Shown one piece after another: positions 8,207 to 47,103 of a stretch of DNA of 64,000 nt. Below the pieces are notes generated by a model, which was given only the letters and a program-made list of their open reading frames with translations, did not search any database and had not been told where the DNA came from. Positions within the stretch are counted from its first letter, which is position 1, and each line of letters begins with the position of its first letter. Source of the stretch: an uncultured bacterium (GTDB lineage: Bacteria > Krumholzibacteriota > Krumholzibacteriia > Krumholzibacteriales > Krumholzibacteriaceae); contig CAWFAD010000008.1 of NCBI GenBank assembly GCA_963813815.1, positions 1 through 64,000 of the forward strand, read 5' to 3'. The position numbers and the translations under genes were made by a program.

Positions 8207-8442
8207 GTGCGATTCCGCGACAGGCGCCCGCGGCGACATTTAGCGCTTGCATTCATCCCGAAGAGTGCTATATTGACTTCGAGTCGAACAGATTTGGAAT
8301 CGAATTGTAGGGAAACCAGATAAAGACGATAAACAGAACCTGCCTTGTTGATCTTCTCTATTCGGGTCTTGCGAAATTCCTTTCCAACAACATCTGCGAC
8401 GGGAATTTTTTCTCATTCATGTGAGACCAATAGGAGGTCACA

Positions 8443-8733
8443 ATGAAGATTTATGTAGGGAACATGTCTTTCGATTCGAACGAAGCTGAAGTGCGGAAAG
8501 CGTTCGAGGCTCACGGCAAAGTTGAAACCGTGACGATCATCAACGACCGGGACACCGGTCGTCCGAAAGGGTTCGGTTTCGTCGAGATGTCGAACGACAC
8601 CGAAGCCAAAGCGGCGATCGAAGCCCTGAACGGCAAGGATTTCATGGGCCGCACCCTCAACGTCAACGAGGCTCGTCCTCGCGCTGAGGGCCCCAGCCGC
8701 GGACCCAACAGCGGTTACCGGCGCAGCTTCTAG
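8443..8733 (+). CDS. RNA recognition motif (RRM) RNA-binding protein
   Basis: RNP2 IYVGNM, RNP1 KGFGFVEM, VNEARPR; strong RBS AGGAGG. Confidence 0.93.
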   Translation: MKIYVGNMSFDSNEAEVRKAFEAHGKVETVTIINDRDTGRPKGFGFVEMSNDTEAKAAIEALNGKDFMGRTLNVNEARPRAEGPSRGPNSGYRRSF

Positions 8734-37822: not shown

Positions 37823-38923
37823 TTAGATACCGACCATCGTCGCCCCGTGATAGCTGAGCACGGGAGCGATCGGATTGGCGATGGCGCTCGAAGTGCTGCC
37901 CGCGAAGAGGAGTCCCACCGCGCGGGGATTCGTCGCGACATCCTCGACCAGCAGCGAGCCCGAGTCGCCGCCAGCGAGGAACGCGCTGCGTTTCTGGTAC
38001 ACCATAACCTGGCCGGTGTAGCTCCGGGTGAACGCGACGCCGTTGCACTCGTCCTCGTAGCCTACGTTGACCGCCACGTTGATCGCGCTCACGTAGCTCC
38101 GGGTGAGACCCGACGTGCGTCCGCTCTTCTTGACGAGGAGCCCGACGTAAGCCTCGAGCGTCGCCGACGAGAGCACGCCGATCTCATAGATCGAGCCGTC
38201 GGTCCGCACCATGCCGGGGATGACCTGGGCAATGGCGCAGTCGACGTTGTGGCTCGTCGGATAGTAGCTCGAAAGGCTCGAGAGATTCGCCACGAAATCG
38301 GCCGAGAGCTTCTGGCAGCTCACATCGATGAGACCCGGCTGGTTGATGGGGTCGCCGAGGACCGCCACGTCCGGATCCCCCGAGCTCGCCGCGACGTCGC
38401 CGCAGAACACGTGCGAGTTGCTGAGGATGTACTGGACTCCGCCCTTCTGAACGAGGGCGCCGAGCGTGCCGCTGCAGCAGTAGTTGTTCGCGAGGTCGTT
38501 GGCGTTGCCGCCGGAGACCCCGAGCTCGATCGGACGCGGCATGCGGGCGGTGTGCGGCGTGGTCGTCGTCTTGAACGCTTTGATCTCGCCCGTGACGAAG
38601 GGCACGACCGGCACGCCGTCGAGCGTCTTGGGAACTCTCACTTTTCCGGCTTCGGATTTGAGGAACACCATGACGGCCGGCTTTCCATCAGCCGTGAGAC
38701 CGGTGCCCGTCCCAACGACTTCAGGATCCTCCATAAGGGCCGGCGTATGCTTGTTCTGGACCGCCATGACCGCGAGGGCCTCGGGACTCGCCGCCGAGAG
38801 AGTGACTCCCGTCTGATCCGACACTGGAGAAGCTGGTGTCTCCTCCTTGTCGGAGCAGCCGACTAGGCCCACGAAGGCCACGACAGCGATGGCGAGAATC
38901 GCAAGCCGTGAATAACGCTTCAT
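37823..38923 (-). CDS. Trypsin-like (Nal1-like) serine protease lipoprotein
   Basis: Lipobox LVGC; SGTLGALV, LSNSHV (His), VDCA (Asp), KSGRTSG, GDSGS (Ser). Confidence 0.85.
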   Translation of the reverse strand: MKRYSRLAILAIAVVAFVGLVGCSDKEETPASPVSDQTGVTLSAASPEALAVMAVQNKHTPALMEDPEVVGTGTGLTADGKPAVMVFLKSEAGKVRVPKTLDGVPVVPFVTGEIKAFKTTTTPHTARMPRPIELGVSGGNANDLANNYCCSGTLGALVQKGGVQYILSNSHVFCGDVAASSGDPDVAVLGDPINQPGLIDVSCQKLSADFVANLSSLSSYYPTSHNVDCAIAQVIPGMVRTDGSIYEIGVLSSATLEAYVGLLVKKSGRTSGLTRSYVSAINVAVNVGYEDECNGVAFTRSYTGQVMVYQKRSAFLAGGDSGSLLVEDVATNPRAVGLLFAGSTSSAIANPIAPVLSYHGATMVGI

Positions 38924-39097
38924 GGAAACCTCCTGTGCTGAAGGGGATGAAATGGATTTATAAAGTAGATTGTCCTCCCCGCGGTTTGCGGAGTCAATAG
39001 CATTTTTTGGCCGTTCCGCCGGGGCCCGCCGGCGCGATAACCTTTGCAAAACGCCGAAATCGGGGTATATTATCTATGGTCTCACCGAGGCCTCTGT

Positions 39098-39455
39098 GGG
39101 GGCGAATGGATTCGACGGGGATGGAAGAGGCAAGGGGAGCGTGCCGAGGCGCCATCAACCTCGTAAATCAGGTGGCACAACACAACTGCCGACAACCAGT
39201 TGGCACTGGCTGCCTAGTACATAGGCAACCCGTCCGCTCCGTCTGCGCAGGCAGGGGCGGAACCCGGGCGTCGATTACTGCCGGCTAGCGTGAATCTTTG
39301 CTCAGGAGATTCACGCGAAACAAACATGAGCTAGTCTCTCGGATCTTCTGCCTGTCGAGGCTCCCCGGGACGAAACAAACTCGATAGGACACGCACGTAG
39401 CAGCCCCTCGCGGAAACATCTTCGGACGCGGGTTCGATTCCCGCCGCCTCCACCA
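39098..39455 (+). ncRNA. ssrA: tmRNA; tag peptide (A)ADNQLALAA* at 39188-39217
   Basis: 5' GGGGGCG..GGATTCGAC pairs with 3' CGCCTCC-ACCA including the G3.U pair; T-arm GGACGCGGGTTCGATTCCCGC; tag ends LAA-stop. Confidence 0.97.
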
Positions 39456-39493
39456 TTATCAAGTTGGCACGCCACGCGCGGCGCCTCGGAAAT

Positions 39494-40672
39494 CTAGTGA
39501 AGTGTCCCCTCCAGCAGAAGATCGTCGACGTTTGTTGATTCGAGAAGTCTGAGCCCCTTCTCGCGGTCGACGACGAGCGGCATACAGCCGGGATAGCGCA
39601 GCTTGAATTGTTCCAACCCCCGAAGAGTTCTCGAAGCGCTCGACTTTGCCTCGATCGCGTATATCTTCCCTCTCAGCTCAACGACAAAGTCGACCTCGAA
39701 CTTCCCTTCTCGCCAGTAATGAACCCTTCCGCTGGAACGCAACAACGCCGCGCCGACGGCCGCCTCGAAAATCCGGCCATACCACTGAGGATTTGCGTCG
39801 ACCTCTTCGGGCGATCGGAAGGCATGTACCAGAGCGTTGTTCAGCGGCAAGAGTTTCGGGCTGGAAGCCCGCGTCCTCACTTCCGAGCCGCTGTATTTGT
39901 GAAGTGTGCGAATGAGGAATGCCCCCTGCAACAGATCCAGGTAGTGCTTGATCGTGTTCACATTCCCGGTTTCCTGAAGTTGGCCCAGGAGTTTCTGGAG
40001 TGACACCTCCTGGGCTGGATATGCCATCGCAAGCTCGAACATCTGGCGGAAGAGCGCCGGCTTCTGGACTGAACTGAGGCCCAGTATGTCTTTGATGAGC
40101 ACGGGTTCAATAATCGAGTCCCGCAGATACTTCTGCCATCTCGGAACGTCGTGACACAACGATGCGGCTGCCGGATATCCGCCGAACTTCAGGAACTCGT
40201 CGAGTCCCCATCCAAAAGCCTCCCTGCACTCGCCGAGATTCCAATGATCGGCAGTGATGACCTCGTATCTCCCGGCCAAGCTTTCACCGAGTCCCCGCTG
40301 AAGGGACAGGCTGGCTGATCCCAACAAGACGACTTTGAGTCTCTTGGACTCGCGGTCCTGATCGAACATGTGCTTGATAACCGAGCTCCAGTGGGGAATC
40401 TTCTGAACTTCATCGATCACGAGAAGGACGCCATCGCCCATTCGCCTGGCCCTTTCCCAATGCGCCGTGAGCCACTCCCTGTCGGGAGTAACGATCTCAT
40501 CCGCCGTGACCATAAGCGAGGGGCCCTCCCAACGTGCGATAATTTGCTGGAGCCCCGTGGTTTTACCGACTTGCCTCGGGCCGATGACCACCTGGATGAA
40601 ATTGAGCTGCTCGCGCAGCCGGGATGCCAATAGTCGAGTGAAATGCCGTTCAATTTCCTTCATAGTGGCCAT
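39494..40672 (-). CDS. AAA+ ATPase with DUF4143 and a C-terminal PD-(D/E)xK-like domain
   Basis: GPRQVGKTT, IDEVQ, LGSA, ESLAGR, GGYP, EVDFVV..AIEAK. Confidence 0.9.
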   Translation of the reverse strand: MATMKEIERHFTRLLASRLREQLNFIQVVIGPRQVGKTTGLQQIIARWEGPSLMVTADEIVTPDREWLTAHWERARRMGDGVLLVIDEVQKIPHWSSVIKHMFDQDRESKRLKVVLLGSASLSLQRGLGESLAGRYEVITADHWNLGECREAFGWGLDEFLKFGGYPAAASLCHDVPRWQKYLRDSIIEPVLIKDILGLSSVQKPALFRQMFELAMAYPAQEVSLQKLLGQLQETGNVNTIKHYLDLLQGAFLIRTLHKYSGSEVRTRASSPKLLPLNNALVHAFRSPEEVDANPQWYGRIFEAAVGAALLRSSGRVHYWREGKFEVDFVVELRGKIYAIEAKSSASRTLRGLEQFKLRYPGCMPLVVDREKGLRLLESTNVDDLLLEGTLH

Positions 40673-40819
40673 AGCATATTCATTTTTGGTAGATTTGTCT
40701 AGTATATTTAGGAGAATAATCTACTAAACTTTGAATTATGCCGCAACAAATTGTTATTATATGAGTTATATAATTAGCACTTCTACGGAAAGCGGGCAAA
40801 AACAGGGGTGTCCCTCCGC

Positions 40820-40841
40820 TTCTTTGCAACAGTGTCCACCA
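40820..40841 (+). repeat. att-like repeat R1
   Basis: TTCTTTGCAACAGTGTCCACCA, 19/22 identical to R2. Confidence 0.7.
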
Positions 40842-40908
40842 TTTTCGAGCATAAGCTTCGATTTCCATGCAACAATGTACACTGTATATCGCATGGCTGG
40901 ACGACAAC

Positions 40909-41235
40909 TCACGAGACGAACCGGAAGGCCCCGAACCAGACGACAAACATGAATCCGAGCACGCAGAGAAATCCGAAGGCTATCAAAGCCGCGATTATCA
41001 CGGTGCGCCGGAACATGAGTCGCTTTGCTTCCATGTAGGTTTCCATTGCATCCTCCTTGTTGAGCGGTACAGGCGCATCTCCCGTCGTTTCCATCTTTGC
41101 GAACTCCTTGGCAAGGTCGGCGGTTTCGGGGTCACTCGCCAGGTACGATTCGACAAGCGCGCGCGTATCCGCGCTCGCCTCGTTGGCCACATAGATGGGT
41201 AGAAGATCGAGAATCACGTTTCGAGTGATCTTCAT
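40909..41235 (-). CDS. Anti-sigma factor-like membrane protein
   Basis: NVILDLLPIYVANEASADTRALVESYL (zf-HC2-like, metal ligands absent); C-terminal TM; follows the ECF sigma. Confidence 0.8.
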   Translation of the reverse strand: MKITRNVILDLLPIYVANEASADTRALVESYLASDPETADLAKEFAKMETTGDAPVPLNKEDAMETYMEAKRLMFRRTVIIAALIAFGFLCVLGFMFVVWFGAFRFVS

Positions 41236-41236
41236 T

Positions 41237-41722
41237 TCAATACACCTTCCTTTCGATACAGGCCGCAAGGATCATCTTGCGAACGCGATGCACTTTCACT
41301 TTGGCTGATGCGAGTGTGATTTCCAAGACGCGGGCGATCTCCTCGTAAGGCATATCATGCCGCACGCGCAGGACAAAGGCCGCACGATCGATCTCCGGAA
41401 GCGTTCGCAGGAGCCTCTCAACTCTTACCAGCTCGAGCCGGGATTCGGCTCGATCTTCCGGTCCGGCCGCGGGATCCGGCAGCGTCTCATCGAGAGCGAT
41501 CTCGCGCCGGCTCTTGCGCCGCCGTTCAAGAAACGTGTTGCGAGCGATCGTCATGAGATATGCCTTGAGGGTTTCCGTGCGAATGGCGCTTCTCTTCACC
41601 CATGCGCGAACGAACGTTTCGGAAGTGATGTCCTCCGCTTCGGCGCGCTCGCCCGCAAGCGAGAAAGCGAAGCGGTAAACCTCCGGGGCGTAGGACTCGT
41701 ATAGTTCTTGAAAGCGCAGCAT
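41237..41722 (-). CDS. ECF sigma factor
   Basis: AEDITSETFVRAW, YLMTIARN, YEEIARVL..AKVKVHR; RBS GGAGG. Confidence 0.9.
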   Translation of the reverse strand: MLRFQELYESYAPEVYRFAFSLAGERAEAEDITSETFVRAWVKRSAIRTETLKAYLMTIARNTFLERRRKSRREIALDETLPDPAAGPEDRAESRLELVRVERLLRTLPEIDRAAFVLRVRHDMPYEEIARVLEITLASAKVKVHRVRKMILAACIERKVY

Positions 41723-41856
41723 TTTTCTCCTCCGGTGATAATAGACATTTGGAGATGGAAAGTTACAAACAAATGGATGTGACATGAGGAGGGATGCGCT
41801 CACTCCGGAGCCGAGCGACAGAGATGGGGTACGGTACGATAGCGTGCAGGTGGCGT

Positions 41857-41878
41857 TTCTTTGCGAGCGTGTCCACCA
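41857..41878 (+). repeat. att-like repeat R2
   Basis: TTCTTTGCGAGCGTGTCCACCA, 21/22 identical to R3. Confidence 0.8.
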
Positions 41879-41904
41879 ATTCAAATCAGACGACAACGTC
41901 AGGC

Positions 41905-42756
41905 CTACGGCCGAATCCCGGCTGATTCTCGAAAGATCGTTCGCGATACCAGCTCGGTTGCACAAGCAGTCAGCGCGAATATCGCGAGAATGATCAGGTA
42001 GATCTGCAGGGCGCTCAGGTCTCCAAAATCCCACCAGTTGTCGCGCATAAGATTCACCGCCGATGTATTCAGCACGGCATGAAAAAACATCGCTATGAAC
42101 AAACTGCCATTGCTCCATCGCCAGAGGTGACCCATGATAAATGCGATGAGAATCGTAGATATCGGATATAGCACGACAAATTGCGACCAGCTCAATCCAT
42201 TGCGGAAATCCGCAAACCTGAATGCGGGGAAATGCCAACACGCCCAAACGAGGCCGACTATGATTGCCCTGGTCACTGATCTCAAGCGGTCCTGCAAACG
42301 AGATTGGAGAAAACCGCGCCAACCCATCTCCTCTCCCAACGGGCCTACTCCGAAAATAATCCCGCCCAGAAATGCATTCACCGGCACGAGTGCGATCATG
42401 GTAGCGGCGATTTTCCATAGGGCGATTTTGGCCGAAATCCCCAGAACGAGATAGAATACCAGTCCGATGGCGGGCAGCAGAAAGAAGGCAGCAATATAAA
42501 CACGCCAGTTTACCTTTACGAGAATCAAGCGCTTCAGCAGACCGAGGACAGCCGCGCGCCCGCCGGTTAGGCCAGTCATAATAAGCGCAGCTGCGGTCGG
42601 GCCAAAGCTGCCTGCCAGAAGAAATCCCGCAAATCTCCCGTCGTTGATACCGACCATTCCATTAATCGATGCTATGCCCATCAACCAGATCGCCCACGAA
42701 ATAGCGTAGGCAACAGCCACAAAAGCCAAGATGGACTTGATCCCTCGATCCTTCAT
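41905..42756 (-). CDS. CPBP (Abi/CAAX) intramembrane metalloprotease
   Basis: EEMGWRG, WACWH, HAVLN. Confidence 0.9.
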   Translation of the reverse strand: MKDRGIKSILAFVAVAYAISWAIWLMGIASINGMVGINDGRFAGFLLAGSFGPTAAALIMTGLTGGRAAVLGLLKRLILVKVNWRVYIAAFFLLPAIGLVFYLVLGISAKIALWKIAATMIALVPVNAFLGGIIFGVGPLGEEMGWRGFLQSRLQDRLRSVTRAIIVGLVWACWHFPAFRFADFRNGLSWSQFVVLYPISTILIAFIMGHLWRWSNGSLFIAMFFHAVLNTSAVNLMRDNWWDFGDLSALQIYLIILAIFALTACATELVSRTIFRESAGIRP

Positions 42757-42927
42757 TGAGGGCCTCCTCAATCAAGGCGGCATCCGGCCCGTAGGAGAGT
42801 ATCATCGCCGAGTGAAGTAAGGCATACCTGGACTGCGTGCATCAATACGGCACAGCGGCGCAGTTGTTTCCAGAAAAGAGCCCGCCTGGATTCGGTCTTG
42901 CATTCCAGCAGTACGTGCGGCGGTCAC

Positions 42928-43149
42928 TCAGTATCTGTCGAGTGCCCAGTTCAGCGCCTTCGCGACAGTCTTTCCCTTAACACCGATATGCCGGGCAATA
43001 GCCTCGTTACTGAGCGCCAACCGTTTCAAATGCAACGCCTTTCCCGCGATCTGCTGATATTTTGGAGGGATCTCGACCTCCAGAAGTTCCGCTTCGAATG
43101 TCATCTCCGCAAAGGTTCGAATTCTTTGCGGGCGTGTCCACCATTTCAA
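42928..43149 (-). pseudogene. HTH-containing ORF fragment that starts inside repeat R3
   Basis: KWWTRPQRIRTFAE..PPKYQQIA..LSNEAIARHIGVKGKTVAKAL; no clear RBS. Confidence 0.6.
43109..43143 (+). repeat. att-like repeat R3 (most complete copy)
   Basis: GCAAAGGTTCGAATTCTTTGCGGGCGTGTCCACCA. Confidence 0.85.
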
Positions 43150-43164
43150 CTCAATTGTGTCGGA

Positions 43165-43653
43165 TCATTCTTCGCAGACCGATTTCGAGCGTTTGCGACC
43201 CTTAATGGTCTTCAGCGCATCGGTGAGGACCTTCAGGACGAGCCTGTCTTTCTCCCTTGCCGCCGCTTCCTTGCTGGCAATGATCCGCTCCAGCTTCAGA
43301 ACGAGCACTTTTGTCCGACCGAGAGGCACCTTGATCGCATGTTTCCTTTCCTCGTCGAATTCGCCCAGTCCGTCCATAGTGAGAACGATATCGAAGAGCT
43401 CGATGCCATTGCCGGCGAACATTGGCCCATTCCTCGCCGTCGGAGGAACGTAAACGCCACGAACCTCTTTCAGGGCTTTTTCAAGGCCGGGATCCGGCAG
43501 CGTGCGAAACCACAGGTCGATACCCTGAGTCACAACGGGCGCTCCCTGAAGGGCGGCGGCGGAAAGCCCCACGATCATGAACTCGACTTTCTGGCGAACG
43601 AGCTCCTTCAGAAACTCCGCTTCCCGATCACCGAATATCAACGAATCGGCCAC
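43165..43653 (-). CDS. Nucleotidyltransferase-fold protein (DUF6036-like)
   Basis: MIVGLSAAALQG..TQGIDLWF..IIASKEAAAREKD. Confidence 0.75.
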   Translation of the reverse strand: MADSLIFGDREAEFLKELVRQKVEFMIVGLSAAALQGAPVVTQGIDLWFRTLPDPGLEKALKEVRGVYVPPTARNGPMFAGNGIELFDIVLTMDGLGEFDEERKHAIKVPLGRTKVLVLKLERIIASKEAAAREKDRLVLKVLTDALKTIKGRKRSKSVCEE

Positions 43654-43996
43654 GACGCAACGCCCTCCTCAAACGCTCGACAGGCTTCTCACTCAAGAGA
43701 AGCAGTGTATGCCTGATATTGTCTCGATCGATCCCTGGATGCAGCCTCGAGATGCGTTCCGATTCGGTGGCCAGGGATTTCATCCGTTCGGCCGGCGTAT
43801 CCGTTTCTTCGAGCAGGGCCGATACGGATATATGCAGGCGCTCCGCAATAAGGATCAGGGATAACGGGACGACGTAATCCTTGCGAGCCAGCGAATAGAA
43901 CGCATTTCGACTGACCCCCGCTTCACGCAGCATCTCTCCGATGTTCAGGCCCCTCCGGCGGCATTCGTATTCGACCTTATCCATGGAAAGCTTCAT
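43628..43996 (-). CDS. XRE-like HTH protein, partner of the nucleotidyltransferase
   Basis: EMLREAGVSRNAFYSL..IAERLHISVSALL; overlaps the downstream gene. Confidence 0.7.
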   Translation of the reverse strand: MKLSMDKVEYECRRRGLNIGEMLREAGVSRNAFYSLARKDYVVPLSLILIAERLHISVSALLEETDTPAERMKSLATESERISRLHPGIDRDNIRHTLLLLSEKPVERLRRALRRGRFVDIR

Positions 43997-44002
43997 ATAC
44001 AT

Positions 44003-44031
44003 AATGTACCACTATTTGGTACACTTGTCAA
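44003..44031 (-). promoter_or_regulatory. sigma70 promoter with palindromic operator; probably leaderless
   Basis: TTGACA-17bp-TACATT, 6 nt before the ATG at 43996; TGTACCA-N5-TGGTACA at 44005-44023. Confidence 0.75.
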
Positions 44032-44060
44032 CCGAGAATAGGCCCTTGTGTGACGTTATT

Positions 44061-44162
44061 CTAACCGTTGGGTCGATGCTCGACACGCCGGAGCCAGGCA
44101 GCAGCTTTAGTCGCCGTCTTGTCTGTGATTCCGAGCCTCCTGGCGATCGCCGAGTCGGGCAT
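44061..44162 (-). pseudogene. Second, truncated copy of the HTH fragment
   Basis: MPDSAIARRLGITDKTATKAAAW is similar to LSNEAIARHIGVKGKTVAKALNW. Confidence 0.6.
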
Positions 44163-44167
44163 AGTCT

Positions 44168-44944
44168 CTATTCGCCAAAAAGAGTTTCCGGCCGCTGCTC
44201 CATCAATTCTCTCATTGCCGCCAAGAAACGCCCGGCATACGCACCGTCCAGCGGACGATGATCGAAGATCAGGGTGGCAGAAATGAATTGCCTGAAAACA
44301 CACTGCCCCGCCGCATTCCGAACAGCCTTCTCCTGCAGGGCCCCCAGGCACAGCACGGCGATCATCGGCATCGACATTGCCGGAACACCGTTGGTGACGC
44401 CGAAGCTGCCGAGATTCGTGATGACAAAATTGCCATAACGCTTTTGAAGAAAATCTATCGATCGTGACGGGAACCTCATGGCGAGCTTCCGAATAAAGGC
44501 CGGGATGCGCATAAAGCGTTTCAGATAGAGATAGAATTCCCCTTCATCCCGCTGAATTCTTTCGACCTGCCCTCTGCTTTCCTTGACAATCTCATCCAGC
44601 CTTTTCTTGTCGGGGTTGTGCAGTACGACGTACTCCACATGGTTCTCGCTGTCGACCGGAATATTGAAGACCATCTCTTTGGCATCGACGATTTTCTTCC
44701 CATCGAACGAGGCGTAGAGAAACGGAAAATGCAGCAAGGTCTTCGCGGATGCTTTCATGAAAAGATGGGTAAGCGATATTCTGAGGGAAGCCTCACGTTT
44801 GGCATTTGCTTCGCTCCGAAGCGCCAGAAGCCTGTCCATCTCGATATCGATCGCCATCGAAACCGCCGGAACGCGTCGATTCTTGTCGAATTTCATAATT
44901 TGAAATCTTCGAAAGAGCCGCTCTTTCTCTTCCCGTTGCACCAT
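44168..44944 (-). CDS. Stand-alone 2-oxoacid dehydrogenase E2-type acyltransferase catalytic domain
   Basis: GNFVITNLGSFG, FDHRPLDG; no lipoyl domain. Confidence 0.8.
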   Translation of the reverse strand: MVQREEKERLFRRFQIMKFDKNRRVPAVSMAIDIEMDRLLALRSEANAKREASLRISLTHLFMKASAKTLLHFPFLYASFDGKKIVDAKEMVFNIPVDSENHVEYVVLHNPDKKRLDEIVKESRGQVERIQRDEGEFYLYLKRFMRIPAFIRKLAMRFPSRSIDFLQKRYGNFVITNLGSFGVTNGVPAMSMPMIAVLCLGALQEKAVRNAAGQCVFRQFISATLIFDHRPLDGAYAGRFLAAMRELMEQRPETLFGE

Positions 44945-45042
44945 ACGTGTTTCTCTCTTTCGTGGAGCGATACTGATGAAAGTCAATCTTATGGGCAATT
45001 CGATTCCGTGTCAAGGTGCCGGCGGGTTGTGCACGCGCCCCC

Positions 45043-46837
45043 CTATTTCCCTTCCTCCAACCGCTTCAGGGCGGCTTGGCCGTTCTTGTTCCCCGGATTG
45101 AGCTCGAGAGATTTTCGGTACCCTTCGATCGCGCGCTCCTTCTGCCCCACCTTCGCGAGGACCTCCCCGAGGCTGTCGTAGGCATTCCAGGAATTTGGAT
45201 AGAGCTCGACGGTCTTTTCGAACACGTAGACGGCGGCCGCGATCTCGTTCTCCTGAAGCAGCCGGTACCCGAGGTTGTTGAAGTCGGCTTCTTCGAACAC
45301 CGGGCCGTCTTTCCCGCGCCGCGCGAGGAGCTCCCGCAGCTTTGCATCGGCGGCCGGGATTCCTCCCTCGGCGAGGGACTTTCCGAGAGTGTCCGCGGCG
45401 GACCCGAGCCTTTGCTTGCGAACCGCCGTTTTCGCCCGTTCGATCTGCGGCTGCTCCCAGGGGAACATCGCCTCGACCTTTTCGCTTTCCTTCAGGATTT
45501 TCTCCGCTGCGGCGACGTCGCCGACGCCGAGATACGCCTGGGCCAGCATGGAGTAAGTGCTGGCGAATTGTGGGAAATCCTCGCGGCATGCGCGCAGAAG
45601 ACCGATCGCTTCGGCGTACTGCTTGCTCCCCAAGTATTGAGTGGCCCGTTGCATTGCTTCGTCGACGCCGAAGAAGGACGCGTCGCCTCTCTTCGCGCGC
45701 GCTCCATTGAGACCGGCGACCGCCGCCTCGACGCCCTTCTCACCCGCGTCGCGCACGTACTCTTCCACAAGGGATGTCCTCAGGTTCAACAGGCTGGCGG
45801 ATTCGTCCTGCGGGACGGGATTCCCTTTCTCCAGAAGCTGCAGCGCGAATTCCAGAACGCGGTCGGTCCCTGAGGCGATGTCGGCCGGCGTGTTCAGCAT
45901 GCGCAGATCGGGAGGCACGCCGACTCCTTCCCAGGAAACGCCGTTGTAATCGCTCATCACCTTGAAGGCCACCCACAGGGTCCAGCCATTCGGCATCCGA
46001 TCCGGGTATTGCGCCGAGAAGGCGCCCTCGGTGAGATCCCCCACGACGGTGACGTGGGGAAGCACGCGCATGGCCAGCACGAAGACATCGGCGCCGCTCG
46101 CGCTGAGGCGATGCGCGAGAAGGACGCTGGGCCGCGTGAACTGGACTGGACCGCCGGGCTCGACGTTGCGGTACTCCACCGGGGCCAGATCGTCGTGCTT
46201 GGGACCGTAGCGGGTCTGCGTTCGCATATAGTGTCGCTTGCGGTCGGCGAACCGATTCGCCACGAGCTCCGCCACGTTCCCCGTTCCACCCGGGTTGCCG
46301 CGCACGTCGACGATCATCCCCCGAGCGCCGGCGAGCTCCGCGATCGCCATGTCGATCGCCTGACTCGTCGGCCCGGGTCCCGCTTTGAAGTCGCCGAAAT
46401 GCATGTACCCGATCCCGTCCGAGAGCCAGCCGTAGGTGAAGCGACCCTTCAAGGTATCGGTGGCGCCGCCCTTCAAGTATTTCGACTTCACGAGATCCAG
46501 GGAGAAGTCGTCGGGCTCGCGGGCCTCCATCAATCCGCCGCAGTCGCGCCGCGTCCCGTCGGACAGGCAAACGTGCGCGTCGTTCAGGTTCCGCAGCATG
46601 GAGAGCAGTATGCCCCACAGCTCCTCGTCGGTGGTCGCCGGGGTGACCTGCGGGCGGTATACCTTGTACAGGGCATCCCAGTCGACGTGCTTGACACCGA
46701 ACTGGGCGTAGTTTCTATCGAGGCTCTTCCATACGTACTCGAAATTCAATACGGGATCGCGGGGATTTGCGCTCCCCTCGATTCTCGGCAACGGCGGCCG
46801 ACGCCCAAAGGCAAGCGGCGGCAAAGACAATCCACAT
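45043..46837 (-). CDS. S41-family peptidase with C-terminal TPRs; signal peptide out of frame (indel near 46785)
   Basis: LNDAHV, IVDVRGNPGG, SASGADVF, EGVGVPPD; TPR NAYDSLGE..LELNP; MWIVFAAACLWASAAVA lies in another frame. Confidence 0.85.
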
Positions 46838-46932
46838 GACGTGCCATGATCGATAGCTCCTTTCCGTATGCTCCCCAATCTTGTCAACACTCGAATGATA
46901 CGAGAACGGAATGGAAGTTGTTGCCCGGAATA

Positions 46933-46967
46933 GCGAAGGTTCGAATTCCTCGCGAGCGTGTCCGCCA
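46933..46967 (+). repeat. att-like repeat R4, distal boundary of the array
   Basis: GCGAAGGTTCGAATTCCTCGCGAGCGTGTCCGCCA, 30/35 identical to R3. Confidence 0.85.
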
Positions 46968-47103
46968 TTTCCTCTTGGCCGACGAATGCCCGCCGCCGGA
47001 AGCGTCCCGGAGATAACATTTTCGCTCTACCCCCGTACGGACGGTTTTGGTATCGTGACGTCGCACGGGACCGCACACGGGCTTGCGGGCAAGGAGGTCA
47101 TCG

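Follow-up and report, generated by a model that had tools for sequence, protein, structure and literature searches.

The ssrA locus and its array

The window, that is, the whole stretch of 64,000 nucleotides analysed here (positions 1 to 64,000 of the forward strand of contig CAWFAD010000008.1, assembly GCA_963813815.1, from an uncultured member of the Krumholzibacteriaceae), contains one tmRNA gene (ssrA) according to ARAGORN. Downstream of it lies an array of accessory genes (39456-46967), among which a repeat search of the window grouped four copies of a direct repeat, R1 to R4. All cargo genes in the region from 39.4 to 47 kb are encoded on the minus strand, and no recombinase gene was found in this region among the open reading frames (ORFs) and Pfam matches. 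The features are as follows (LSR, large serine recombinase; HTH, helix-turn-helix):

39098-39455, plus strand: ssrA (tmRNA gene; ARAGORN; tag ADNQLALAA), the 3' end of which is the target of the island family
39431-39468, plus strand: predicted attB, currently empty; left half from GGTTCGA (at -18) to the centre TC at 39449-39450, right half formed by the flank CACCATTATCAAGTTGGC
39494-40672, minus strand: module 1 cargo, AAA_14/DUF4143 ATPase gene (Pfam)
40807-40845, plus strand: R1; inner P half-site and core TCCACCA at 40820-40841, outer GGTTCGAA lost
40909-41800, minus strand: module 2 cargo, ECF-type sigma factor (41237-41800; Pfam) and a 119-aa membrane protein without Pfam match
41844-41882, plus strand: R2; inner P half-site and core at 41857-41878, outer motif lost; right flank is a former ssrA flank
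41905-42771, minus strand: module 3 cargo, CPBP/Rce1-like membrane protease gene (Pfam)
42928-43149, minus strand: C-terminal HTH tail (WWTRPQRIRTFAE...) orphaned from a split LSR gene and conserved from the R3 core onward
43109-43147, plus strand: R3; complete P-type half-site (GGTTCGA at -23) and core TCCACCA at 43114-43143; attR-type scar
43165-44002, minus strand: module 4 cargo, two small ORFs (162 aa and 124 aa) without Pfam match; block also in contig C318 of genome G031
44059-44157, minus strand: second LSR-tail relic, ending in SAIARRLGITDKTATKAAAWLRRVEHRPNG before the stop; R site deleted
44168-44998, minus strand: cargo, gene with 2-oxoacid dehydrogenase acyltransferase domain (Pfam)
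From 45043, within 44168-46900, minus strand: cargo, S41 peptidase/TPR gene (Pfam; annotated start approximate)
46933-46971, plus strand: R4; complete P-type half-site at 46938-46967, core TCCGCCA; outermost and oldest scar, with chromosomal right flank

The T-loop motif at two distances from the core

In ssrA, the T-loop motif GGTTCGA (39431-39437) is separated by 11 nt from the terminal TCCACCA (39449-39455), whereas in R3 the same heptamer (43114-43120) precedes TCCACCA (43137-43143) by 16 nt and in R4 (46938-46944) it stands 16 nt before TCCGCCA (46961-46967), a core with one change that is in register. The bases separating motif and core in R3 and R4 are unlike those of ssrA. The pattern GGTTCGA-N(5-30)-TCCACCA matches twice in the 64 kb (ssrA and R3) where 0.01 matches are expected, and none of 100 shuffles reached two. 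The motif shift proposed in an earlier sequence-only reading, 11 nt in ssrA versus 16 nt in R3 and R4 with differing intervening bases, is thereby confirmed, with TCCGCCA as the core of R4. R1 and R2 have only the inner 22 nt in common (TTCTTTGC..GTGTCCACCA) and carry unrelated sequence at the position of GGTTCGA, so that the joint designation R1 to R4 is valid for the core and the shifted motif for R3 and R4 only. Within the 2.53-Mb genome there are four matches to the 22-nt R pattern, all of them on the plus strand and downstream of ssrA, and none to its reversed control.

R3 can also be drawn as a local hairpin (CCGCAAAG...CTTTGCGG) with a DNA fold of -8.3 kcal/mol (z -2.9; 2 of 200 shuffles as good), and the modules of about 1-4 kb, all on one strand and with no integrase nearby, might accordingly be taken for an integron-like cassette array in which the hairpin would be a folded single-strand recombination site or a mimic of the RNA T-arm. 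We consider this extremely improbable: R4 folds no better than shuffles (z -0.5, 58 of 200), R1 and R2 are devoid of the 5' arm of the hairpin, and the feature conserved across genomes is instead a 48-bp palindrome about the core (z -6.2). The local R3 hairpin was rejected as a general feature on account of the R4 value.

Attachment sites in related genomes

Of 52 genomes of the order, 12 carry the R pattern; outside the window it occurs at 15 sites in 11 other genomes, and the reversed control gave no match. At all 15 of these sites, GGTTCGAA directly precedes the pattern at the 16-nt spacing (12 exact, three with one change). On its minus strand, R opens a conserved ORF of about 76 residues, WWT(L/R)SQRIRTFA..., that ends in a helix-turn-helix. 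In G047, 2.5 kb from ssrA, this frame continues upstream into a serine recombinase, and in G039 an N-terminally truncated ORF of 544 residues spans GGTTCGAATTCTTTGCGA-TGGTGGACACCG-TCGCAAAGAATTCGAACC into the tail, with Pfam matches to Recombinase, Zn_ribbon_recom, HTH_23, and the end of Resolvase. These two frames through the palindrome identify R as the left arm plus core of a 48-bp palindrome that lies inside an LSR gene. The attP is thus the palindrome GGTTCGAATTCTTTGCGA-(12 nt including TCCACCA)-TCGCAAAGAATTCGAACC, situated in the LSR linker before the C-terminal HTH tail (in G039, ...GGTTCGAATTCTTTGCGACGGTGTCCACCATCGCAAAGAATTCGAACC...). Such 48-bp palindromes are present twice in G039 and also in G003 and G047 (DNA fold z -6.2), and the same 23-nt half recurs in an independent tRNA-Met-type site (L089).

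In five genomes (G010, G016, G020, G041, and G044), attL consists of ssrA...CCTCCACCA, followed by TCGCAAAGAATTCGAACC and the 3' coding sequence of the LSR; the tmRNA end reads ...GGTTCGATTCCCGCCGCCTCCACCA there, directly before TCGCAAAGAATTCGAACC. In G039, attR comprises an R-type site followed by GTATCTGGTTGGCACACCACGCGCGG..., that is, a window-type ssrA flank with a DUF4143 gene, at 93% identity over 1390 nt. The sites attP, attB, attL, and attR have only TCCACCA(T) in common, and the centre of the palindrome is its TC; the centre of attB was placed by the same palindrome symmetry. Relative to this centre, the first base of GGTTCGA is at -18 in ssrA, as against -23 in attP, where it has a mirror image at +23. 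In the right half of attB, one of seven motif letters matches at +12..+18, so that the 5-bp rule appears to hold on one side only. The right flanks of the attR sites are very diverse, for which reason we read the right half-site as permissive.

Several claims of the sequence-only reading can be judged from these sites. That ssrA is the attB is borne out, as attL, attR, and the empty ssrA share nothing beyond TCCACCA(T), and the assignment to a serine recombinase gains support from the R motif lying inside a Resolvase/Recombinase/Zn_ribbon_recom gene in relatives and from attL in at least five genomes of the class. The attP/attB geometry is seen in the left half (-18 versus -23), while the right half of attB shows no shifted motif. 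Similarly, the core is present in all four presumed P half-sites, but these are attR-type hybrids composed of a P half-site, the core, and a former ssrA flank, and in R1 and R2 the motif has been lost.

Tyrosine integrases or transposases, which that reading had named as counter-evidence, were not found on intact elements, the gene spanning the motif being a serine recombinase. Tandem tyrosine-integrase islands, with the repeats as displaced 3' ends of the tmRNA gene, would be an alternative that follows the pattern of most tRNA and tmRNA islands; ssrA is described as a classic tyrosine-integrase target (PMC4383910), and the array resembles tandem accretion. This explanation is nonetheless hardly credible, considering that identity to ssrA extends over just 7-8 nt, that there is no colinearity with ssrA to the left of the core, that the one PF00589 match of the genome is of Xer type, and that the gene running through the site encodes a serine recombinase.

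The array as a probable stack of island remnants

Comparison of flanks across genomes bears on the history of the array under the LSR reading. In addition to the attR of G039, the CCA end of ssrA in G043 is joined directly to the sequence that follows R2 in the window, and in contig C359 of G033 the DNA after the ssrA region is homologous to the flank of R4 in the window, with a degraded R4 being present there. These comparisons imply that what now lies to the right of an R site once flanked ssrA, and that four island remnants are stacked in 39456-46967, with the newest closest to ssrA. Module 2 also follows an R site in contig C259 of G033. Each of the four remnants has lost the LSR body and the attL arm, and R1 and R2 the outer motif as well. 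What the window retains are dead scars, relics only, which account for the 7.5-kb patch of accessory genes.

Of 30 ssrA loci read in the order, 27 have the same ssrA end over the last 22 nt of the searched pattern and the other three have one change. In the window, the CCA end of ssrA is not followed by an island arm, and it looks like an empty, usable attB. Joints in the read data at 38900-41100 were sought in Logan contigs of four runs (among 24 sequencing runs listed, the best contains 0.49 of the sampled words). These contigs yielded only short pieces and, where the conserved end of ssrA lies, numerous unrelated loose ends, but no usable joint.

The order of modules differs between close relatives: in contig C318 of G031 (L013), a module of two small ORFs and a tail relic lies between ssrA and the DUF4143 gene, joined to the window-type ssrA flank by a deletion, while in the window it is distal to R3.

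Several junctions are less regular. Palindromes that are complete yet lack an LSR body are seen in G039, G003, G010, and G047, as are breaks located precisely on the outer border of an arm. P-core-P' junctions in arrays run counter to the canonical selectivity for attP x attB. In seven relatives of the genus (G031, G033, G034, G036, G037, G039, and G040; L149, L150, L154-L157, and L169), ssrA ends in ...CTCCA with no encoded CCA. In three of them (G033, G034, and G039), a 25-nt spacer after ssrA is followed by a displaced ssrA-like end, GGGTTCGATT.CCCGCCGTGTCCACCA, that combines B-type spacing and outer part with a P-type GTG beside the core; such hybrid ends cannot be the product of a single crossover at TC. 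As a separate observation, an IS256-type transposase fragment in L023 (contig C96 of G047, 8234-8600) has its end precisely on the outer border of the palindrome's left arm.

A split recombinase gene and its tail

The window tail (42928-43149) matches residues 462-535 of the G039 LSR (E 1.6e-17). Full-length homologues of the LSR are numerous (461 at E <= 1e-20), typically about 570-620 aa long, and carry PF00239, PF07508, and PF13408; likewise, Pfam assigns Resolvase, Recombinase, and zinc-ribbon domains to P0001 of the relatives. Nine of 12 homologues whose C-termini were read end in ...GSNSLRWW followed by RRRESNPRPK..., the latter being the antisense tmRNA end. Of the same 12, P0012 has WWT and the HTH tail, and P0065 has the tail without the WW core. 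In the searches made here, fused LSR-tail proteins came up only in G039, P0012, and att-less forms (P0065, L114).

When the tail was used as a query against a library of 1.84 billion proteins, 577 representatives were obtained, the best 150 of which are all 59-288 aa long with the match at the C-terminus, which suggests that the tail is nearly always apart from the enzyme in assembled DNA. The tail alone matched nothing at E <= 1e-5 among proteins of 299-952 aa. An AlphaFold2 model (50-row alignment) places a 30-residue low-confidence linker at the attP position, followed by a three-helix bundle (pLDDT 98); Foldseek gave no match of the tail model in the PDB at E <= 0.001, the best rows being generic HTH DNA-binding domains. 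Over codons 13-70 of intact tails, the median dN/dS is 0.26 (43 pairs from ten rows, two of which duplicate G039 sites; intact copies only). From these sequences, we infer that the episomal enzyme would carry the HTH tail and the integrated enzyme would not.

A conserved, mostly free-standing tail could also be a gene in its own right, such that R1 to R4 would be the 5' coding region and operator of a small HTH regulator gene that was copied together with its neighbours, its likeness to ssrA being coincidental. The purifying selection on the tail fits such a gene, as does its occurrence as a short ORF nearly throughout the best 150 of the 577 representatives; the R3 ORF has a TTG start two codons upstream, and the palindrome could serve as an operator. 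This would leave unexplained, however, why several copies are preceded immediately by a stop and lack a start, why the frame runs into an LSR in G039 and G047, why R-site flanks equal the ssrA flanks of other genomes, and why all copies lie downstream of ssrA on the ssrA strand. We regard a copied regulator gene as very improbable and treat the tail as the severed end of an LSR.

Recombinases of the window's genome

Neither the window nor the remainder of the genome, which is 90.8% complete, yielded an LSR of the island family. The one LSR that the genome does encode is frameshifted, lies on another contig, and shares 23% identity with P0002 over 254 aa; the only PF00589 match is the Xer-type gene, which adjoins scpA/scpB-like ORFs away from the array. 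With the cognate LSR absent from this genome, R1 to R4 are tied to an enzyme through their homologous counterparts in other genomes. Across the class (208 genomes), every LSR body of the family is either truncated or broken off at a contig end.

The unrelated LSR is located on contig C16 at about 313.1-314.6 kb (L005), split over two frames (ORFs of 310 and 257 aa) beside a replication-protein-like ORF of 336 aa, and this locus probably represents a small integrated element whose integrase is broken.

Distribution across phyla

A wider set of LSR loci was gathered by protein similarity alone, that is, independently of the motif, with an LSR alignment against the genomes of 185,579 species, which resulted in 80 loci. 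Their hosts include Krumholzibacteriia, Latescibacterota, Acidobacteriota, Solirubrobacterales, and Gemmatimonadota as well as Myxococcota, Arenicellales, Methylomirabilota, Omnitrophota, and one cultured Geomesophilobacter. At 56 of the 80 loci, the 3' end of the LSR gene is abutted by the 3' end of an opposite-strand tmRNA gene (39) or tRNA gene (17; Ser, Ala, Met, and Glu). The other 24 comprise six at a contig edge, three in which the C-terminus of the LSR is not reached and no tDNA is seen, and 15 with no gene called, most of which have a tDNA-like 3' fragment, a full palindrome, or an att-less LSR-HTH fusion. The tRNA-Ser, -Ala, -Met, and -Glu loci (L069, L075, L082, L092, L103, L104, L106, L110, L123, L125, L127, L129-L132, L138, and L140) have identical geometry, and one genome of the Arenicellales has several copies of the family on different tRNA genes.

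An attL was scored if its arm motif had at most one change from TCGAACC (53 rows). The distance from the start of the T-loop motif to the arm motif is 36 nt in 51 of these 53 rows, corresponding to -18 and +23 about the centre; one row has 37 nt and one is a false tmRNA call. Spacing across homologous sites, on which the initial proposal had staked its validity, is thus conserved both here and in the 15 R-type sites. Three sites with the T-loop GGTGCGA or GGTGCAA have the arm TCGCACC, representing about two independent events (L080/L081 and L145), and eight further sites combine the arm TCGCACC (with G) with a normal T-loop (with T); given about two independent covarying cases alongside eight mismatched sites, covariation between T-loop and arm is only suggestive.

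Both ends of an island could be located on a single contig in three genomes. The island of G211 spans about 69.8 kb (attL at 3,087,399; attR at 3,157,182-3,157,211), that of Geomesophilobacter sediminis Red875 (G210) about 40.2 kb (attL at 139,935; attR at 99,741-99,770), and that of G010 about 3.5 kb. In Geomesophilobacter, the P arm GGTTCGA-ATTCT-TTCCCGCCGCG-TCCACCA equals the ssrA end GGTTCGA-TTCCCGCCACC-TCCACCA with 5 nt inserted, which gives the clearest view of the 5-nt shift. A single degenerate pattern for attR, applied to five genomes with full-length LSRs, found a plausible site, correctly placed as to strand and side, in two of the five and nothing in the other three; one further match is probably due to chance. 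A scan of IMG/VR with the LSR alignment returned 17 pattern matches, none of which was confirmed, and no free viral or circular form was found there.

Proposed mechanism

Taken together, we consider it highly probable that R1 to R4 are attR-type scars of islands that integrated at the 3' end of ssrA via an LSR according to the motif-shift model. The LSR itself, now gone from the window's genome, would be of the kind seen in related genomes. The site comparisons show that integration restores the tmRNA end without any change, with the LSR body then reading into antisense ssrA at attL and the orphan tail staying behind at attR. The zinc-ribbon domain would read GGTTCGA in both sites, 5 bp further out in attP, and by analogy with the Listeria innocua (LI) integrase such binding of the shifted motif is likely. 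Strand exchange would presumably occur at or near the central TC, with a crossover expected within TCCACCAT; the junction sequences bound it to the shared core. A permissive right half of attB would further allow repeated landings beside ssrA, whereby older islands, having lost their LSR, would be pushed outward and produce the four-module array.

The arm motif also encodes GSNSL or RIRTF and borders a possible ssrA-terminating hairpin, and such other constraints could likewise fix it. One may thus accept the LSR att scars while holding that the 5-bp offset has nothing to do with the zinc ribbon and that the arm is determined by linker coding (GSNSL/RIRTF), by its role at the base of a replacement ssrA terminator, or by binding of the recombinase domain or HTH tail. 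That the arms are translated, that the outer arm of attL pairs with downstream sequence to form a GC hairpin with a T run, that the right half of attB is without the motif, and that eight sites pair an arm G with a T-loop T are all in line with this. We nevertheless judge it unlikely, since the spacing of one and the same heptamer is constant across phyla, in ssrA as well as in either arm, the positions agree with the ZD motif as reported for the LI integrase (PMC3783163), the Geomesophilobacter arm is the ssrA end plus exactly 5 nt, and coding does not demand a palindrome at the DNA level.

A broader interpretation of the family is possible, even if we would at present stop short of favouring it. 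LSRs across many phyla would take as attB the nearly invariant T-loop and acceptor end of their tmRNA and tRNA target genes, with the zinc ribbon reading GGTTCGA, and carry attP in their own ORF, so that integration would swap the HTH tail for a junk tail and act as a switch between episomal and integrated states. Only the gene-side half of attB would matter, and islands would therefore stack beside ssrA in an integron-like manner.

Relation to known systems

For the LI integrase, Rutherford et al. (2013) place the ZD motif at bp 16-24 in attP and at bp 11-19 in attB (PMC3783163). As far as this A118-type system is described there, the family resembles it in its Resolvase, Recombinase, and zinc-ribbon domains, in a palindromic attP of about 48 bp and an attB of about 10 bp shorter extent with little identity between the two, and in an outer motif that, for the left half-site here, is 5 bp nearer to the centre in attB (12-18 versus 17-23 after TC; bp 11-19 versus 16-24 in LI). 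Unlike in the account of LI, the motif is here the universal T-loop of a tmRNA or tRNA gene, occurs in the left half of attB only, and has its attP counterpart inside the integrase ORF.

Matched by description, the closest known case are the ssrA islands of Dehalococcoides with the recombinase DsiB, for which McMurdie et al. (2011) report a 20-bp direct repeat and place the insertion point in the T-loop (PMC3146451). Their six-gene integration module includes DsiA, RecF-like, ParB-like, and Mom-like genes and an embedded tRNA-like gene, and the authors suggest that the DsiB gene is perhaps complete only on a circular form or beside a neighbouring island (PMC3146451). Common to both cases, according to this description, are the ssrA target, a reverse-strand LSR beside attL whose 3' end runs into attL/ssrA, and tandem stacks downstream of ssrA, many without an integration module (PMC3146451). 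The islands described here differ from that account in an identity to ssrA of only 7-8 nt (TCCACCA, then T) at the acceptor end with a different sequence left of the core, in an arm that carries the 5-bp-shifted motif, and in that the missing part of the gene is a conserved HTH tail. The description of the DsiB islands predates knowledge of the 5-bp rule and does not identify which part of the gene is missing.

With the tyrosine-integrase islands at tRNA and tmRNA genes, as outlined in the Islander paper (Hudson et al. 2015), the family shares the restoration of the gene by the island, a displaced gene end at the far border, and tandem arrays, while in those islands the duplicate of the gene end is colinear and tens of bases long (PMC4383910). 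The same paper states that integrases of the serine family are not known to target tRNA genes (PMC4383910). Our search of the openly accessible literature found the Dehalococcoides description as the only one of a tmRNA/tRNA-directed serine integrase family.

An integrase gene that is split by its own integration has a parallel in Archaea. The SSV1-type integrases of archaeal viruses, which are tyrosine recombinases, have their attP inside the int gene, and splitting presumably inactivates that gene. Here, too, the integrase gene is divided on integration; unlike in the SSV1 type, its catalytic and DNA-binding core is left intact and the exchange affects the tail alone.

Significance

The site logic is that of large serine integrases and the biology that of the Dehalococcoides ssrA islands, so that the locus joins the rule by which serine integrases discriminate attP from attB with the older observation of island pile-up at ssrA. 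The use of the T-loop as the shifted motif, an attP within the ORF before an HTH tail, and the wide spread over tmRNA and tRNA genes may be new. Serine integrases aimed at the ends of tmRNA and tRNA genes are common and widespread, set against the view of 2015, as worded in that paper, that none were known for tRNA genes (PMC4383910), and the family represents a natural case of an integrase whose C-terminus depends on the integration state. A target half-site that is identical in 27 of 30 loci, together with full-length enzymes with mapped sites in a cultured isolate, makes the family directly testable as a broad-host landing-pad tool; if the broader interpretation is true, it would supply ready-made landing-pad integrases for almost any bacterium.

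Features accompanying the recombinase gene

In L152, L160, L161, and many of L068-L145, the antisense LSR 3' coding sequence just past the P' arm, located 3' of the restored tmRNA, forms a GC-rich hairpin with a T run, which is probably an island-borne replacement terminator of ssrA.

A conserved protein of about 190 aa is encoded directly upstream of the LSR in the five loci that were read:

L071, 2231-2785: LSR neighbour of about 190 aa
L068, 2153-2734: the same
L105, 2172-2765: the same
L101, 2142-2744: the same
L082, 2049-2609: the same

This protein was not found in a search of the window's own genome. Its members are 40-58% identical across distant lineages, one of the five has a weak MerR-type HTH match in Pfam, and it is a candidate directionality factor or regulator.
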